A DNA stretch of 64,000 nt from a bacterium (GTDB lineage: Bacteria > Oederibacteriota > PGYV01 > Palsa-1178), in contig JBAXIL010000001.1 of NCBI GenBank assembly GCA_037138355.1, forward strand, positions 1 through 64,000, written 5' to 3'. This document shows positions 1-12,000 of the stretch, piece after piece. Numbering within the stretch: position 1 is the stretch's first letter; every line of letters begins with the position of its first letter. A program made the position numbers.

Positions 1-3000
1 ATATCCAACAGCAACAAACACAGCAGGAATATCAACAAACACATTTACACCTACAGCAACATTTACAAAAACAAATACTCCGCCAATAGGCTCAACAAAT
101 ACATTTACACCAAGTGTAACAAATACAGTACCAGCAGGTTCAACAAATACATTTACACCAACATATACAATGACAGCGGTTTCAAATCCATCACTTTCTG
201 TGGTAATTTCTGTACCTACAAATGTAACAGTAGGACAGCAGTTGACAGTTAGTATGGTAGTTACTAACAATGGCAATGCTGCAATCTCAGGAGTTTTACC
301 TGCACCTCTTGTTATAACTGGAAACACATCTTCTTTACAACCTGTAAGTACTCCTCCACCATCTGCTGGAAGTCTCGCAGTTGGAGCAAGCACAACATTT
401 ACTTGGGTATATAATGTAGTAGCTGAAGGTAATGTGACTATAAAAGGAACAGCGTCTGGCAATAGCAATGCAGTCGTAAGTCCTGATAGCAATATTGCAG
501 CAGCATCATTGAAACCTACAGTACCAACACCAGCACAGACAATAGCTTTCTTTGTTCCTGTAGATACGAGAACACCAGTTGTTCTTATTTATCCTAATCC
601 AAATCCAACACCAGGAACAACGCCAGATAGAGTAATTGTATTTACAGTAACAAAACCAGTATCAAAAACTGTGTTTAAAATATATACAAGTATGGGTAGA
701 TTGATAAGAAAATATGAAAACCCTACAACATATTCGCAGGGTGGAAAAGCAATAGTTGTTCCAGGAGTTTACTTTCAGGGTATGGCAAGAGGCGTATATT
801 ATTATGTGATAATAATAACGGATGCTTCAGGAAAAGAAGCAAAGTCACCTATAGCAAAAGTAGTAATTCAATAAAAATGGTCATTGTCACAAAGGCAATT
901 GCCAGTGATATAGAAAAATAAAAAAATGCCTGGCTTAGAAGCCAGGCTTTTTTTATTTTATCTTAAAAAGTATTATTGAAACTTTGTTTCAAATTCAGAG
1001 TGGCATAAAATGCTTATAAGTATATTATTAATAAGCGTTTTAATGAGAATGCTATTGACTAAAAGCATAAGGGTTTGGTATAATAAATTCAATATTTTTA
1101 TAGGGAATGCTATTAAATATATTAAGGAGAAAGCATGAAAAGGACACACCTAATTTACGCTTTTATTTTCCTTTCCATCTTTATTATACCAATATACGCA
1201 GGAGAGACAGAGGATATGTTTATTCCCCAGTCGTCTATAGTATATGAAGATTTTTATCAAATTGCACAAGCCGGTTTAATAAAATCAGTTCCAGCAGAAC
1301 AATTCAGAATTAGTCCAATGACAGAATATGATGCGGCAGGATATATGGTTGAAGCCGCTGCGCAGTATGCTCAGGCAGGCGGACCTACGGAAGTAAATAG
1401 TCAGATGGTAGCAAAAATAAAACAGTACTACAATATATACAGAAAAAAAGCTTTTGAGATATATGGAAAGACAATGGAAATGAGAAAGAAACTTGCCAAT
1501 ATAGAAAAACTTCTTAAATCTCCTGATATAAAAGCCTTTGATGAAACTCTCACAGAAGCAAAGGCAGCTATGTTTGATGTAGAAACAGAATTTGCAAATA
1601 CCACTTTTAGAGGAGTTCCTCCTTTTAAAGTTATGGGTATGCTTCAAGCAAGATGGCAGGATGTTGAAACATTTGGAATAACTCACGCACATCACACTTC
1701 TCTTGGCGGAACACTAATGTCACTTTGGACAGAAGGAATTGTTTCTCCTGATGTGAGTTTTAAACTTAATTTGAATTTTGAAAGACCAGCAGACGAAGCG
1801 AAAAAAAATACTTTTGGCGAATACTGGGGAACAGGACAAAGATTTCTTGATAAATATACAATCAATCTTAATCTCTACGGTTGGCAGATTTTTACAGGCT
1901 TTTTCTGGGAAGATATTACACCATTTATAGCAAAAGGAGTTCTCTCGGATAGACCAGCTTTGTTTGATCGTGACCCTTATGTACTTGAAGAAACAACAAA
2001 AGGACATTTTGAAAACGCATTCTTGCACTCTTTTGTTAAGCGCGGAGATATTTGGTCTAAACATGGTTTTTATGGTGTAGAGTTTATGAATATGGCTCTT
2101 CCAACAGGCGCTAGATTAAAAATTATGGGTGGTAAAGCAGAAAAGTTTGATGAGCAATATGATAAACTTTATTTATATGAATTTGCAGGAAGGGTAACGC
2201 AACCAATAGATTTAGGTATATTTAGCGGAAGTGAAGTATCACTTAACTTCTTTAATACCTCAAATGAAAAAGCAGAAATAGAAACTCTTGCACCAACTTC
2301 TCCAGATAATAATTTTCCCCCAAGTCCTGATGGCTATATACAGGCGTCTACTATTGTGGGTGGAGATGCTAAAATTAAAATTTTTAATGTCTTTAATATA
2401 AATGGTGAGTTTGAACATGCGGACACATTTAGTTATTTATTAAAACAGCCAGTGGGCGTATTCGGTTCTCCTCCATATTTTCTACCACGATATCATCAAG
2501 AAGGTACGGCTATGTTTGTTAATGCTTTAATAAAAGAAGTAATCCCTGTAACTGTAGAGCTTAAATATACAAGAATAGATCCTAATTATATTGCGAATTC
2601 TTCTGCTATCAATGATACTACAAGAAGAAGCGTTAATTTGGCAGGAGATGGAGTTGATTTAAAATGGGATACTTATGCTGGCGATCCTACACTCCTATAT
2701 AATAACTTATCAAGATTAGATGCGAGAGCAACAATTGAAATGCCAGTTTCTATGGGCTTTATTAATCTATGTTATGGAAACTCCGGTCAGATAAATCCAA
2801 CTACGAATAGAATATTTGTTGATCACTTTCTTTTTGGAAACAGATTAACAGGAGCTATGTGGTGGCAGTTATTTTATAGCCAATACGGATATCCTGTGCC
2901 AGGAAGAGATAGTGGTTTCTATGCATATAATGCCATTGATCATCCACAAATAGCTGGTGCCGGAACTGGAATGAGATATATATTTACTGATAAATGGTTA

Positions 3001-9000: not shown

Positions 9001-12000
9001 TGGGTAATAATACTTTTGATCCACCTGGTATAGGACAGGTAGGTTTTCAGTTAGGTGGAAATCAGGGTAAATCTATTTTCTTGGTGGATGATATTTGGTT
9101 CAAATAATAAAAGACTATAAAATATAAAAAAACGGGCGAAAGCCCGTTTTTTTTTATAAAAAATTTTGAAAATATATAATAGCAATAAAATATAGTAATA
9201 ATATAATTTGTTTTGGTTAATTGAATTTGTGGTTTTTTGTAAATTCGAAACTTTTTTTTGATATTATTGTCATATTAATAGGACTTAATATAAGATTTTG
9301 TTTTAAATTTTTTTATTATGAAAGGTTAAAATGTAATGAAGAAACTTATTGCAATAATGATACTTATGTCTATTTTTACAAATATTTTTCCAATTGGTGG
9401 AACTATTCCTACAGGATTACCAACAAACTTTGGATTTGGTTGTATTGATAAGGCCGATTCCTATGCGACAGACGGACCACATTTTTACAAAGGAACCACT
9501 GTTGGCACTTGTTGGGATTATTCATATGCATATCTGACATCAGATTTTGCTTCTAATACTTGGACGAACTGGGTAGCAAGTGGTGCTTGGGCAAAGCAAG
9601 AATTGCAGTATTGGGAAAGTAAGGGACAAATTCAAGTTTTTTCATTTTACTATACTCCATATACGCTAAGTAATTACACTCAAACAGCAAAGATGAAGAC
9701 TTATTTTCAAGATTTTAAACTTCTATGTCAAATTATTGCAACAAATTCAACGAAGAAAGTCATAATCCATATAGAGCCTGACCTTTTAGGATTTTGGAGA
9801 AAAGCTGGGAAAACTGCGACATCTACTGGAGCAGTAGTTGTAGGGAGTGCTGTATTTGGAGAAACTTGTGACGGGATTGTAATTAATAATTTACCAGATA
9901 CTATTGCAGGGTGGAGTGAGGCCTTGTATAGAATTAAAAACCAATATGGTGGCGGAAAAGTTTTACTTGCACATCATTATACGCATTGGGGTAATGTAAA
10001 TTCTAAAGATGTAATTATTGATTCTTCTTTAACGCAGACTGATATCAATACTAATGTTGATGACACTACAAGCTTTATAAATCAAATTGAAAATGGAAAC
10101 AAATACGATTTGATATTTGTTGATCCATCAGATAGAGATGCTGATTGGTACAGGGTAATAGGTGGAGCTTCTAATACCAGATGGACAGACCCATCACATT
10201 CATATAGTTCGACAAGAAGTTGGGGAAAGCTTGGTTATATATATGACAGAGTATCGACAAATCTTGATAGAAGGTTGATGTTCTGGCAAGTACCCGTTGG
10301 AAATACTTATTATACTACCTGTAATAACAGTTCTTATCATTATCGTGATAATAGTGCGCAAGAGTTTATTCCTTCAACTACGGCTGATGGAACTTCGGGA
10401 AGTCCAGGTGATGCATATTTATCAAATGATACATCTAAAGGACCTGGTTATTGGGCAACTCGCGGGTTTATTGGAATATTGTTTGGAGAGGGTGGTTACG
10501 ATCATTACTCTTCTCCAAATGATATGTGTCATTTACGAGATTATGTAACAGATGGAATTACAAATCCTGGTTCAGATGCAAATGCTGGCGGCCCATCATT
10601 TGATGTTTGGGGGAAAGCAGTCTCAAACTCTACAGACAATGATGGTGGTTATATTAGAGCAGCAGTTGCTAAATATTGTTCAACAGGAAAATATTCACTG
10701 ATAGCATCTCCTGTGGCGACCGCGACTAATACTAAAACCAATACTCCACAAGCACCTACAGCGACTACTACTAAAACTAATACTCCACAAGTACCTTCAG
10801 CGACTACTACATTTACTCCTTCTAAAACAAGTACTCAATTAATACCAACTTTTACTTCAACAAATACACCAAAAACACCAACCTATACAATTACTTCTAC
10901 AAGCACAGTAATATATTTCACGCCGACCTCTACTGTGACTTCTTTACCACCAACTGCGACTATAACAAATACAGCAGTATTACAAACCGTTACAATAACT
11001 ATCACAAAAACAATTACACCCATCGCTACAGTTTCAGTTACGGATATACCAGTGAATTCAGCAACAGCTACTATGACTAAAACTGTAAGCCCAGTTATTA
11101 CAAATTCGCAGACCTCGACTCAAATACCAACCAGTACTTTAACCAATATAATAACTGCAACAGTTACACCGACAAATATGATAGCAATACTAAGTCCAAC
11201 GAGCACGAAAGTAAATACTGTAATTGCAAGTATAACAATGACTGCTACACAAAAGAATACTATTATGCCATCCCCAACTATGACAATAACTCGTACTTTA
11301 AGTCCAATTATTACAAATACAATAGTTATAACTGCGACAGCAATTAACTCAGCCACTATTATTTCCACTATGACATCTATTGCAACTGCAACCTTTACTT
11401 CCACTATTGCCGTAGATCAAGGTATACTTTCTATACCAAGTCCGCCTATGGCATATCCTAACCCCTATACAGGTCAGCAGCTAAATATTAAATTCAGTAT
11501 TTCAAGCCATGCAACAAAAATAGCTGTGAAAATATATACAATCTCACGCAGATTAATTAGAAAGGTTCAAACGGATGGAGTATTTCATCCTGGGGATTGC
11601 TATTTTACAATAAAGCGAGAGTATTTATTGGGACTGTCTAAGGGAACATATCTATATCAAATTATTATAAACGATAGTAATGGTAGAGAAGCAAAATCAA
11701 AGACTGGCACAATTATTATTCAATAGTTGCTGCTAAATCACAAATATTTATTTATTAATTTGATTTTTTATCATTCATTTCTATAATGCTTAATTATCCT
11801 CAGTAATATATAATTGTTAACAATATTGTTTATAATTATTCAATTTTTACAATAAACTTGACTTCAATTAGGGCTATGATAAAATACATTAACATATATG
11901 ATAAATGCTTCAGTTTAATAGGACTTTCCAGAAAACTTGATTATTTAATAATTCCGTAATATTGTTTAGTTCATTACTTAAACTGAAAGGTGGAGTTTAT

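Follow-up and report, generated by a model that had tools for sequence, protein, structure and literature searches.

Two paralogous barrels with SLH-like heads precede a lipoprotein cluster in Goldbacteria and resemble a Cytophaga cellulose locus

Within the 64,000-nucleotide stretch of contig JBAXIL010000001.1 that we analysed (the window), from an uncultured lineage that degrades cellulose, six consecutive genes, g2 to g7, encode two paralogous outer-membrane barrels and then four beta-sandwich proteins, three of them lipoproteins. We favour, with somewhat better than even confidence, a reading in which these genes are one unit, an "atypical PUL" uptake module equipped with OmpM-style wall tethers. 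The features on which this reading draws are as follows.

928..947, + strand: terminator-like hairpin with an 8-bp stem (6 GC pairs) and a T run, after the upstream CTD-cargo gene
1055..1084, + strand: promoter-like site, TTGACT-18-TATAAT, 11/12 matches, TG before the second hexamer
1135..3549, + strand: g2 (P0001, 804 aa), 'A1-type' large barrel; signal peptide at residues ~1-22, SLH-like head ~28-80, helical stalk ~85-156, barrel ~160-804
1216..1374, + strand: SLH-like head of g2, from head profile A4 against the PDB
3566..5758, + strand: g3 (P0002, 730 aa), 'A2-type' small barrel; head at residues ~25-70, stalk ~80-135, barrel ~139-730 with the family motif PYGxxTPNR
3638..3775, + strand: SLH-like head of g3, from head profiles against the PDB
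5800..6549, + strand: g4, secreted CBM9/DOMON-like beta-sandwich protein (Pfam CBM9_1, E 4.5e-16)
6591..7667, + strand: g5, lipoprotein with a Thr-rich linker and a CIA30/CBM11-like domain (CIA30 weak, E 0.021)
7738..8403, + strand: g6, small lipoprotein with a CBM11/CIA30-like domain (CBM_11 E 6.2e-6, CIA30 6.5e-5)
8418..9107, + strand: g7, lipoprotein and paralog of g6 (CIA30 E 2.6e-4; 47% identity to g6 in alignment A7)
9126..9153, no strand assigned: GC-rich hairpin with A and T runs on its flanks, 12-bp palindromic stem, reported on the - strand
9336..11726, + strand: g8, a separate unit with an unnamed GH-like N-domain, a Thr-rich linker and a C-terminal sorting-type domain (no Pfam row)

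The hairpin at 928..947 sets the 5' limit of the unit, and the terminator-like hairpin at 9126..9153 would mark its end; such sites number 7 in the region against 6.6 in shuffles, not above chance. The last base of the promoter-like site lies 50 nt ahead of the g2 start codon, a consensus match of a kind that is likewise not enriched (56 in total against 57.6 in shuffles). Contigs of two RNA libraries cover each of g2 to g7 and span the g2/g3 and g3/g4 junctions, a hint of expression from libraries that both derive from the likely source sample and whose coverage has no silent control stretch beside it. Downstream, g8 has a sorting-domain-like tail in common with the gene upstream of g2, as expected of the CTD cargo that the first-pass annotation had called. 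Its structural neighbours in the Atlas have CBM2, CBM5_12 or ricin domains, and a GH26 at TM 0.53 is no more than a lead; in other loci the linker and tail alone find matches while the N-domain is not conserved. The LacI regulator reported to follow is present at 13119-14153, and a TPR/PD40 gene (11990-13081) that had gone unmentioned lies between it and g8.

Both reading frames of the barrel pair are genuine, and each ends in Phe. As had been claimed, the Pfam and NCBIfam libraries give nothing above noise for either protein, both falling below every cut-off, and the homologues of g2 (42 proteins at E<=0.001) are unnamed or 'hypothetical' and carry Goldbacteria or 'Spirochaetia' labels. The two are paralogs of one another (A1 against A2 family profiles, hhalign prob 97.8%, E 8e-13), with barrel regions of about 590-645 residues. 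A crude period-2 strand scan of the whole proteins gave 19 segments for g2 and 21 for g3, 2-3 of which belong to head and stalk. The Pfam scan of g2 and g3 showed no plug and no TonB-dependent receptor family at E<=1, and the 25 families listed for the relatives of the two include none either. Structural leads come from the model of g3 that the Atlas itself provides (pTM 0.65, pLDDT 0.63): its nearest clusters are Bacteroidota barrels of 563 and 587 aa (TM 0.65/0.84 and 0.66/0.82, residues 132-730), followed by SLH-bearing clusters of 888 aa (Vulcanimicrobiota) and 635 aa (Armatimonadota) that align from residue 23/27 to 730.

An exhaustive search with the A2 profile retrieved 541 representative clusters at E<=1e-3 (380 at <=1e-10, 140 at <=1e-30), most of them 565-595 aa long and matching profile positions 174-706, the barrel alone. 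Among 46 sampled members no Pfam family was found at E<=0.01 except a weak OMP_b-brl in 4; a single Pkip-1 row at the same threshold is a chance match. By profile comparison, then, the g2 and g3 barrels belong to a large family that has no Pfam model and consists mostly of stalkless Bacteroidota proteins. The earlier description of the pair as a Goldbacteria version holds for the stalked form, which is confined to the lineage; the unit itself is widespread, and because its barrels sit in a separate, mostly Bacteroidota family, it is not peculiar to Goldbacteria.

One of the related loci (L181, G022:C1) fits the published chu_1276-chu_1280 cellulose locus of Cytophaga hutchinsonii. Its ORFs encode 747, 606, 380, 375 and 598 aa, the last with CelD_N and GH9 domains. 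The A1 profile matches the 747-aa ORF, in the position of CHU_1276 (hhalign prob 95.3, E 2.3e-8, columns 253-785), and A2 matches the 606-aa ORF, in the position of CHU_1277 (prob 99.9, E 2.7e-32). Moreover, the 375-aa ORF has the three residues that were mutated in CHU_1279, Y253, F256 and F343, according to the accessible text of PMC12016534. That text names chu_1276-chu_1279, with the adjoining GH9 gene chu_1280, an atypical cellulose PUL and describes knock-outs in which the locus is required for growth on cellulose; its evidence is of this kind, knock-outs and growth, rather than transport assays (Zhang et al., 2025). The Cytophaga locus thus resembles ours in having homologous barrels, large then small, and beta-sandwich, CBM11-like outer-membrane proteins after them, in a host that degrades cellulose on contact. 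It differs in that its barrels, like those of Bacteroidota generally, have neither SLH head nor stalk, the profile match beginning at about position 174; in its two bimodular accessory proteins, where four single-domain proteins stand here and homology is only hinted; and in its GH9 gene, which has no counterpart after g2-g7.

Gene order in relatives, which the first-pass annotation had left unchecked, is kept. The order A1-A2-CBM9-CIA30-like-CBM11-like recurs in all 11 FCPU426/Goldbacteria loci with sufficient downstream DNA (44-77% identity), and A1 adjoins A2 in 18 of 19 loci. Across phyla, 67 of 80 loci extend at least 2 kb upstream of the A2-like gene, and in 61 of these the next gene upstream is A1-like. 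Most Bacteroidota loci have a CHU_1278-like ORF after the small barrel (64/185 downstream ORFs). Together with the homology to the L181 barrels, the 11/11 order supports the proposal that the pair and its CBM-like lipoproteins take part in glycan uptake without SusC/D. The likeness to SusC/SusD would be one of function only, in that a barrel of the outer membrane and glycan-binding surface lipoproteins are encoded together; g2-g7 include no SusD-like gene, and there are two different barrels rather than one.

The CBM9 protein and three CBM11/CIA30-like lipoproteins said to follow the pair are borne out. g4 has an ordinary signal peptide with no lipobox and a counterpart after the small barrel in 11/11 informative loci of the lineage (46-77% identity), and g5, g6 and g7 each have a Cys behind a hydrophobic leader, as read from the sequence. 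The g5 family is related to that of g6 and g7 (hhalign prob 96, E 3e-9). g6, conserved in synteny across loci, scores 26.8 bits against a CBM_11 cut-off of 27, and its family matches the CHU_1278-like family over only 54 columns (prob 78.9, E 1.6e-5); comparison of the lipoproteins with CHU_1279 did not show homology (prob only 0.8 and 5). The setting is cellulolytic: our genome has 2 GH9 and 3 GH5 matches, and Goldbacteria cells have been captured on cellulose, with CBM11 as their commonest CBM, according to the accessible part of PMC7031533.

We then turn to the heads. Pfam SLH has no match in our genome or in any of 13 genomes of the order, and against individual heads only 4 of 22 match at E<=10 (best 0.048). 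The statement that there is no SLH by sequence therefore stands for single-sequence Pfam scans and fails for family profiles, which do find SLH. The g2 head profile A4 selects the Veillonella OmpM structure 8bz2 first (E 5.2e-4), then 8bys (0.0042) and 8bym (0.0044), and the g3 head profile, built from 15 heads, also selects 8bz2 (E 0.0052). A wider profile of 22 heads reaches 8bz2 at E 9.1e-7, a score that depends on adding seven more distant stalked relatives, followed by the Sap and SbsB SLH domains, with the SlpA SLH domain at E 0.87. The new, non-SLH wall-binding head that had been proposed is thus not supported as a new fold: the best PDB match of both paralogs is the Veillonella OmpM SLH. 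As judged from these profiles, each head is a single diverged SLH domain whose nearest counterpart is the one in Veillonella OmpM, with a modest signal for the pair's own families (E 5e-4 and 5e-3).

The conserved residues agree in part. In g2-family columns (n=36), Y37 is kept in 36 and Y65 in 33, and the motif [ST]63-x-Y65-[ED]66-A67 aligns with TRYE 63-66 of VpOmpM1; Arg was not seen at position 64 in these columns (K in 2/36, R outside the six commonest residues). The g3 head has Y32 and a TRAE motif, L53-T54-R55-A56-E57, and in its family (n=47) R55 is kept in 46, E57 and Y32 in 44 each, and W30 in 26, so that a W two residues before the Tyr prevails there; g3 itself has K. Stalk lengths are tightly constrained, at 93-97 and 85-90 residues, which matches the expectation for a periplasm-spanning spacer; in a crude 3.5-period scan their heptad signal is weak, with few strong windows.

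VpOmpM1 (PDB 8BZ2/8BYM/8BYS; Silale et al., 2023, PMC10628300) has the same layout of a single N-terminal SLH domain, stalk and C-terminal barrel. Its Y36 and Y65, tied to polyaminated peptidoglycan, both have their tyrosines kept in the g2 family, and OmpM also occurs as tandem paralogs in Veillonella, with a dual tether-plus-channel role. Its barrel, of 16 strands and OmpF-like, is in another sequence family than that of g2/g3, whose inter-helix SLH loop is shorter and which do not reach Pfam SLH. The hosts of OmpM are diderm Firmicutes, whereas the host of g2/g3 is no Terrabacterium, going by the neighbours Elusimicrobia and Firestonebacteria reported in the accessible part of PMC7031533. 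SlpA of Deinococcus radiodurans and Thermus (PDB 8AGD, 7ZGX; SlpA_C PF21620) similarly combines SLH, coiled coil and a very large barrel. SlpA_C was not found by the Pfam scan in g2 itself; in 12 of 36 relatives of g2 it matches below threshold (<=29.7 bits against a cut-off of 35) over about model positions 213-322 of 656, some 90 positions. The assignment of the pair to the SlpA/OmpM class thus survives for the head-stalk-barrel layout and is not supported for the barrel. SlpA differs further in its partner. CsaB, the pyruvyl transferase (PF04230) that usually accompanies SLH domains, is missing on the g2/g3 side: only one of the 13 genomes of the order has it, and in our own it stays below threshold.

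If the pair served the envelope alone, as the main OmpM-like tether and general porin with the beta-sandwich proteins as structural partners (surface layer, LPS or wall contacts), then no specific cellulose role would be needed. Such a role would suit the single copy of each barrel in this genome, the presence of the pair in 7/7 sampled genomes of the order, the lack of any glycoside hydrolase within the g2-g7 operon, and a LacI gene found beside only 1 of 11 loci. It would also suit the giant surface proteins, bearing CIA30-like repeats and sorting tails, that always lie upstream in the compared loci, the O-antigen ligase and heptosyltransferase genes nearby, and the precedent of VpOmpM1, tether and general diffusion porin together (PMC10628300). 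BamA and LolA are present and OmpA domains are few, as claimed (two matches in the genome), and candidates for the tethering role are scarce: Pal (TIGR02802) passes its cut-off in 0/41 phylum genomes and TolB_N was not found, though absences from this genome weigh little given an assembly of 1.66 Mb against 3.4 Mb for a same-genus genome. We nevertheless regard a purely housekeeping role as unlikely. CBM9 and CBM11 are carbohydrate-binding folds, and the only family members tested are, in the accessible text of PMC12016534, needed specifically for cellulose use. In addition, Bacteroidota pairs have GH3, GH9 and aldose epimerase genes as neighbours, and a genome can hold as many as 8 copies of the pair, which fits substrate-specific loci and not a single housekeeping porin.

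Conversely, the unit might be an uptake module only, whose heads and helices assemble a barrel oligomer or dock a periplasmic partner (binding protein, hydrolase) instead of binding the wall. Canonical SLH scores are not attained, hardly any genome of the order has CsaB, the Arg and Trp responsible for binding pyruvylated polymer (PMC10628300) are not present in the g2 head, and most of the family works stalkless. This we think improbable, as both heads independently pick the OmpM SLH as best PDB match, the W-x-Y and TRxE motifs are retained in the g3 family, stalk lengths are fixed, and the other known tethers were not found in the genomes searched of the lineage. Lower still we place an export or anchoring device, in which the barrels, acting as in alginate export or like Wzi, would export a surface polymer or the sorted giants nearby or hold them in place, with no sugar import. 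The Atlas feature neighbours of g3 do include alginate-export and Wzi clusters (0.91-0.93), and the giants upstream are conserved; those rows come without alignment, however, the structural neighbours are Bacteroidota barrels and SLH porins, the operon has no polysaccharide synthesis genes, and the Cytophaga mutants, as far as the accessible text of PMC12016534 goes, indicate assimilation.

Collectively, our data are best read as a FCPU426/Goldbacteria form of a widespread two-barrel-plus-lipoprotein module. In the uptake-and-tether model, the lipoproteins would hold cellulose or cellodextrins at the cell surface and the barrels would pass the products inward. Both barrels have, on the periplasmic side, one diverged SLH domain with a helical stalk whose length is constant, the arrangement by which OmpM and SlpA fasten the outer membrane to the wall, and the heads would attach this complex to peptidoglycan or to a polymer of the wall. 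We infer this wall binding and its ligand, as we do the oligomeric state, pore function, substrate and lipoprotein-barrel contact; wall binding, the width of the pore and cellodextrin as its substrate are guesses. A single gene pair may thus secure the outer membrane to the wall and also admit sugar chains.

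The large-barrel gene g2 and the small-barrel gene g3 head a row of closely spaced genes, with the following features.

928-947, terminator-like hairpin before g2
1055-1084, promoter-like site before g2, 11 of 12 consensus matches
1135-3549, forward strand, g2, large barrel, 804 aa
3566-5758, forward strand, g3, small barrel, 730 aa
5800-6549, forward strand, g4, Pfam CBM9_1 (E 4.5e-16), plain signal peptide
6591-7667, forward strand, g5, weak CIA30 match, lipoprotein-type leader
7738-8403, forward strand, g6, CBM_11 (E 6.2e-6; 26.8 bits, cut-off 27) and CIA30, lipoprotein-type leader
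8418-9107, forward strand, g7, weak CIA30 match, lipoprotein-type leader
9126-9153, GC hairpin between A and T runs, after g7
9336-11726, forward strand, g8, sorting-tail cargo, after a gap of 228 nt from g7

Spacing within g2-g7 is 14-70 nt, with 16 nt between the two barrel genes. Counts of hairpins and promoter-like sites in the region are not above those in shuffles, so the signals framing the row speak of placement and are no proof. Neither g2 nor g3 reached any Pfam or NCBIfam family, and the coordinates and family scans bear out how the first-pass annotation had described the sequences of g2-g7: open reading frames, the barrels blank for families, with CBM-like followers. Short contigs of two RNA libraries cover every gene from g2 to g7 and span the g2/g3 (3450-3633) and g3/g4 (5788-5942) junctions; both libraries come from the probable source sample, DNA carry-over is possible, the coverage was read without a silent control stretch, and parts of the window without such contigs are uninformative. 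Near-identical DNA is present in freshwater and lake metagenomes from several studies.

We aligned 36 of 42 g2 relatives and 47 of 56 g3 relatives, omitting six and nine fragments, respectively. The two family profiles match each other with a probability of 97.8% (E 8e-13, columns 3-486), making g2 and g3 paralogs, and in the window's own genome each profile matches its own gene alone. Nineteen close loci, labelled as FCPU426, Goldiibacteriota, ‘Spirochaetia’ and Methylomirabilis MAGs, were fetched from public genomes along with one distant Cytophagaceae locus. A g2-like and a g3-like gene are adjacent in 18 of the 19 close loci; the remaining contig stops within the first gene. The order barrel, barrel, CBM9-like, CIA30-like, CBM11-like, which the first-pass annotation had left unchecked in relatives, is kept in all 11 close loci with enough downstream DNA, at 44-77% identity to the window's barrels. 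Its caveat that the CBM-like genes were linked to the barrels by adjacency only can thus be lifted for g4-g7, and still stands for g8 and the LacI gene. As only one of the 11 loci has a LacI-like gene nearby, encoded on the opposite strand, we rejected it as a regulator of g2-g7.

Upstream of the pair, the close loci throughout carry giant proteins that combine CIA30-like repeats with a sorting-type tail. At window positions 170-874 and in the upstream ORFs of seven loci from other genomes (L005-L010 and L021), the encoded proteins are in every case very large, their repeats are CARDB/DUF11-like or CIA30-like, and their sorting-type tail is that of g8; such surface proteins are a conserved neighbour of the row. 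The N-terminal 440 residues of g8 have no Pfam or PDB sequence match. Among the Atlas neighbours of this domain are an unnamed domain that elsewhere adjoins CBM2, CBM5_12, ricin or mannan-binding modules, and GH26 (TM 0.53). Judged from such models, g8 is possibly an undescribed glycoside hydrolase carried on a Thr-rich linker with a sorting tail.

A C-terminal outer-membrane beta-barrel, as in tethers of the OmpM/SlpA class, is supported for both proteins: g2 and g3 end in Phe, the genome has BamA, and the structural neighbours of the Atlas model are barrels. Period-2 segments were found in both proteins by a scan too crude for strand counting. OMP_b-brl matches 9 of the 47 g3 relatives, and SlpA_C matches 12 of the 36 g2 relatives, always below the cut-off and partially. 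The own-genome SlpA_C match (contig C42, E 0.009, 13 bits) was taken as chance, as the 1241-aa frame that holds it is unrelated. Neither family profile matched a PDB barrel at E<=10. SusC combines a plug with a TonB-dependent receptor barrel; in contrast, no Pfam family of either kind was found in g2 or g3 at E<=1.

To define the breadth of the family, we searched 1.84 billion representatives exhaustively with the g3-family profile. This gave 541 clusters at E<=1e-3, 380 at E<=1e-10 and 140 at E<=1e-30, most of them 565-595 aa long and covering profile positions 174-706 only, without the N-terminal head or the helical stalk. In 46 sampled clusters no Pfam family was matched at E<=0.01, except for weak OMP_b-brl matches in four of them and a single Pkip-1 row taken as chance. 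The motif PYGxxTPNR is shared by g3 and members of its barrel family, and loci gathered from species genomes by the motif PYGxATPNRxG came to at least 123 stretches; 80 loci with flanks were used, three regions being counted twice as overlapping loci. Among the matches listed, Bacteroidota account for most of these 80, which also include several FCPU426 MAGs and one MAG each of Fibrobacter and Sporocytophaga. All 80 listed loci have a g3-like ORF and 67 have at least 2 kb upstream; among these listed matches, a g2-like ORF lies directly upstream of the g3-like one in 61 of the 67, and two further loci have one if overlapping stop-to-stop frames are allowed. Of the 185 ORFs after the small barrel in the listed motif loci, 64 form a single family (~330-400 aa), in whose members a crude pattern often finds a lipobox. 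Flavobacteriales-type Bacteroidota loci (L029-L105) often have a conserved ORF of ~750-760 aa after two lipoprotein genes. In the GTDB family of the Sporocytophaga MAG, the small barrel is present in 29 of 31 genomes, in up to eight copies.

The Atlas's own model of g3 (pTM 0.65, pLDDT 0.63) neighbours Bacteroidota clusters of 563 and 587 aa over residues 132-730 (TM 0.65/0.84 and 0.66/0.82), an 888-aa Vulcanimicrobiota cluster with Pfam SLH in all members over residues 27-730 (TM 0.62/0.52), and a 635-aa SLH porin cluster from Armatimonadota (TM 0.51/0.57). As leads, these model neighbours suggest that true SLH-barrel proteins of Terrabacteria may share the g2/g3 barrel. Fidelibacterota DUF6029 proteins (PF19494) also neighbour the model, at a TM of about 0.5, and may be a further branch of this barrel superfamily.

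The genome G022, one of the 31 in the GTDB family of the Sporocytophaga MAG, has one match for the small barrel, at a Bacteroidota locus (L181) where ORFs of 747, 606, 380 and 375 aa are followed by a 598-aa CelD_N plus GH9 protein. By hhalign, the g3-family profile matches the 606-aa ORF at 99.9% (E 2.7e-32), and the g2-family profile the 747-aa ORF at 95.3% (E 2.3e-8). The 375-aa ORF has Y253, F256 and F343, the residues changed in a cellulose-binding-deficient variant of Cytophaga hutchinsonii CHU_1279 (Zhang et al. 2025, PMC12016534). CHU_1279 is itself 375 aa long, and chu_1280 encodes an endoglucanase (PMC12016534). Because the 375-aa ORF with these residues and the adjoining GH9 gene match that paper, we take L181 to be the chu_1276-chu_1280 locus or a near-identical one. 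Knock-outs in C. hutchinsonii, the one species with such data, indicate that cellulose use requires each of chu_1276, chu_1277 and chu_1279; the model of CHU_1276 is a barrel with TBDT-like matches, CHU_1279 binds cellulose via a CBM11-like module, and the cluster, known in two further cellulolytic species, has been proposed as a novel PUL (PMC12016534). CHU_1276, like CHU_1277, is homologous to the window's barrels, and in both systems the large-barrel gene lies directly upstream of the small one. The pair is homologous to and syntenic with the CHU_1276/77-type module, which is itself of a known but barely studied kind.

Homology of the accessory proteins is less certain. Genes g5, g6 and g7 have one domain in common (hhalign 96%), and comparison of the g6/g7 family with the CHU_1278-like one gave 78.9% (E 1.6e-5), over just 54 columns. 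The g6/g7 family gave no match to CHU_1279 (hhalign probability 0.8 and 5), and nothing was found for it in the PDB. Pairwise comparison of g6 with P0108, a lipoprotein of the Cytophagaceae locus L024, was set aside, as a WGC/FG motif in common was all it gave. Carbohydrate genes adjoin the barrel pair in other Bacteroidota loci: L024 carries aldose epimerase and DUF4832 genes, and the Sporocytophaga locus L089 a GH3 gene.

The first-pass annotation had proposed that the barrels bear a new, non-SLH wall-binding head, with no SLH domain by sequence. At the level of Pfam this is so: SLH (PF00395) has no match at E<=1 in the window's genome and none in 13 genomes of its order, and of 22 heads from g3-type and distant stalked proteins, four match it at E<=10, the best at 0.048, without reaching the gathering cut-off. 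The head profiles, which reach SLH domains of OmpM, Sap and SbsB, tell otherwise, and as those of both barrels have an SLH domain of Veillonella parvula OmpM1 (VpOmpM1; 8bz2) as top PDB match, the non-SLH reading is not supported. The whole-length g2-family profile also has 8bz2 as its best PDB match (E 0.0048); with the whole-length g3-family profile it comes fourth (E 0.19), below FliS matches that fall in the stalk helices. Twelve g2-type heads alone match the VpOmpM1 entries 8bz2, 8bys and 8bym at 5.2e-4, 0.0042 and 0.0044, followed by a non-SLH topoisomerase at 0.0089, and 15 g3-type heads have 8bz2 on top at 0.0052. Compared with each other, the two head profiles give 91.8%. When the 15 g3-type heads were joined by seven more canonical-looking heads of distant stalked relatives from the exhaustive search, 8bz2 rose to 9.1e-7 and 8bys and 8bym to ~1.7e-5; these were followed by the Sap SLH domains 3pyw and 6bt4 (~5e-4), SbsB (4.5e-3), two xylosidases (0.009), Sap 9g93 (0.017) and Deinococcus SlpA (0.87).

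The residues of the two head types differ. In the g2 family, Y37 (36 of 36) and Y65 (33 of 36) are the counterparts of VpOmpM1 Y36 and Y65, tied by the authors of that structure to polyaminated peptidoglycan (PMC10628300), and the Arg of TRAE and the Trp are not retained. The g3 family has the Arg in 46, the Glu in 44, the Tyr in 44 and the Trp in 26 of 47 members, with Lys at the Trp position in the window's own g3. The inter-helix loop of the OmpM SLH domain is longer than that of either head. Collectively, these sequence comparisons moderately support the assignment of both heads as SLH domains. Tethers of the OmpM/SlpA class go with CsaB, for a pyruvylated wall polymer, or else with polyaminated peptidoglycan. 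Of 13 genomes of the order, 1 has a CsaB-type pyruvyl transferase (PF04230), and the match in the window's genome is sub-threshold. The missing CsaB and the g2 tyrosine pattern point away from a pyruvylated polymer as the putative head ligand and, weakly, towards a Negativicute-like or new one.

The spacer between head and barrel, counted from the TRxE position up to the first barrel motif, is nearly constant in length: 93-97 residues for orthologs of g2 and 85-90 for those of g3. Against PDB coiled coils the stalk gave matches at E 0.26-1 only, and the heptad signal is weak in a crude scan. We placed 149 barrels, without their N-terminal parts, on an unrooted FastTree and called a row stalked if at least 115 residues precede profile position 170, with no other criterion. 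On one side of a split with support 98 lie 41 stalked and 6 stalkless rows, on the other 100 stalkless and 2 ‘stalked’ ones, and the stalk label changes 3 times on the tree, compared to 37.1 in shuffles, of which 0 of 500 were as low. As the tree is unrooted, gain and loss of the stalk look the same on it. A homology search with a distant stalked barrel (P0135) matched itself and g3 only.

Some FCPU426-labelled and unnamed MAGs have a second locus type made of three consecutive stalked barrels, of which one is g2-like and two are g3-like. The three heads in L027 are SLH-like, W-bearing and Arg-bearing. The three-barrel row suggests a 1:1:1 hetero-trimer; the window's own genome gave no locus of this type. 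Loci of this kind are L027:6416-13886, L035, L069, L076, L084, L087, L090, L094 and L106, and every barrel in them has an SLH-like head; upstream of the three barrels of L027 lie small CBM11/CIA30-like genes.

The window's genome (1.66 Mb in 91 contigs, 94% complete by markers) has LolA besides BamA and two OmpA-domain matches only; TolB_N was not found in it. As a same-genus genome (G063) with two g3-like genes measures 3.4 Mb, such absences are weak evidence, and the assembly may lack more than the marker estimate indicates. Across the GTDB phylum, the small barrel is present in 19 of 41 genomes, including all 7 of the window's order in the sample, and Pal (TIGR02802) is over the cut-off in 0 of 41. 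Pal-like small ORFs near the cut-off (110-120 bits) occur in 4 of 5 genomes of one family within the phylum sample (G032-G071), and in that family the barrel is found in 0 of 5; barrel-bearing families have generic OmpA-domain matches only. This hints that Pal-like ORFs and the barrel are complementary across the phylum, a mere hint because the compared genomes are kin. At 11990-13081, a 363-aa protein has both TPR_6-type repeats and a PD40/DPPIV-like propeller. The folds are those of CpoB and TolB, and neither TolB_N nor Pal was found in this genome. Just downstream (14315-16599) lie genes for a Wzy_C O-antigen ligase and a GT9 heptosyltransferase, and the organism therefore makes LPS.

Two GH9 and three GH5 matches were found in the genome. 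One GH5 cellulase-family match lies in a 1024-aa frame 15 kb past the window's end (contig C1, 79536-80258). We take Elusimicrobia and their neighbours to fall on the Gracilicutes side. Goldbacteria cells have been recovered bound to cellulose, with CBM11 as their commonest CBM (Doud et al., PMC7031533). The same paper, whose text mentions neither ‘outer membrane’ nor ‘SLH’, places the FCPU426 16S cluster in Goldbacteria, with Firestonebacteria and Elusimicrobia as nearest neighbours (PMC7031533). OmpM is reported to be absent from Gracilicutes and Pal from Terrabacteria in a preprint whose main text names neither Goldbacteria nor Elusimicrobia (Witwinowski et al., 10.1101/2021.05.31.446380).

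Taken together, g2-g7 are best read as a two-barrel uptake module of the CHU_1276/77 type in a stalked form, in which the barrels are fused to an OmpM-style SLH tether. We infer that the row acts as a tether, pore and glycan-capture complex. In a bolder reading, the two paralogs, or three in the related locus type, would form one hetero-oligomer with differing SLH heads, the g2-type head offering two ‘polyamine’ tyrosines and no Arg, the g3-type head a Trp/Arg ‘polymer’ motif, and the two together would resemble Gram-positive S-layer proteins with their three unlike SLH repeats. With Elusimicrobia and Firestonebacteria as its reported neighbours, the lineage presumably belongs to the Gracilicutes side, where OmpM was reported absent; the pair would then be a cryptic OmpM-type tether, unseen there because its SLH domain is below the Pfam threshold. 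That such a tether, a hetero-oligomer with unlike heads and a single ancient barrel family should all hold jointly seems to us rather unlikely. In the full-text literature searched, no paper turned up that describes the stalked form or shows how broad the barrel family is.

If the bolder reading were true, the stalkless CHU_1276/77-type uptake barrels of Bacteroidota and the SLH-stalked giant barrels of Terrabacteria would be one ancient family, and outer-membrane tethering and glycan uptake would be linked in evolution. An SLH-plus-stalk tether can hide under family thresholds in a lineage whose searched genomes gave neither Pal nor TolB, which bears on the proposed tethering divide between Terrabacteria and Gracilicutes, itself mapped by such family searches (10.1101/2021.05.31.446380). 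Through its sole genetically studied members, a large unnamed family (541 clusters; 29 of 31 genomes of one Cytophagales family) gains a testable function. The two-barrel-plus-lipoprotein layout reaches well past three Cytophaga relatives, and a second, SusC-independent uptake design may be widespread. As a natural fusion of a tether with a specialised uptake channel, the stalked pair would offer a way to ask how cellulose degraders that work by contact link capture at the surface with import.
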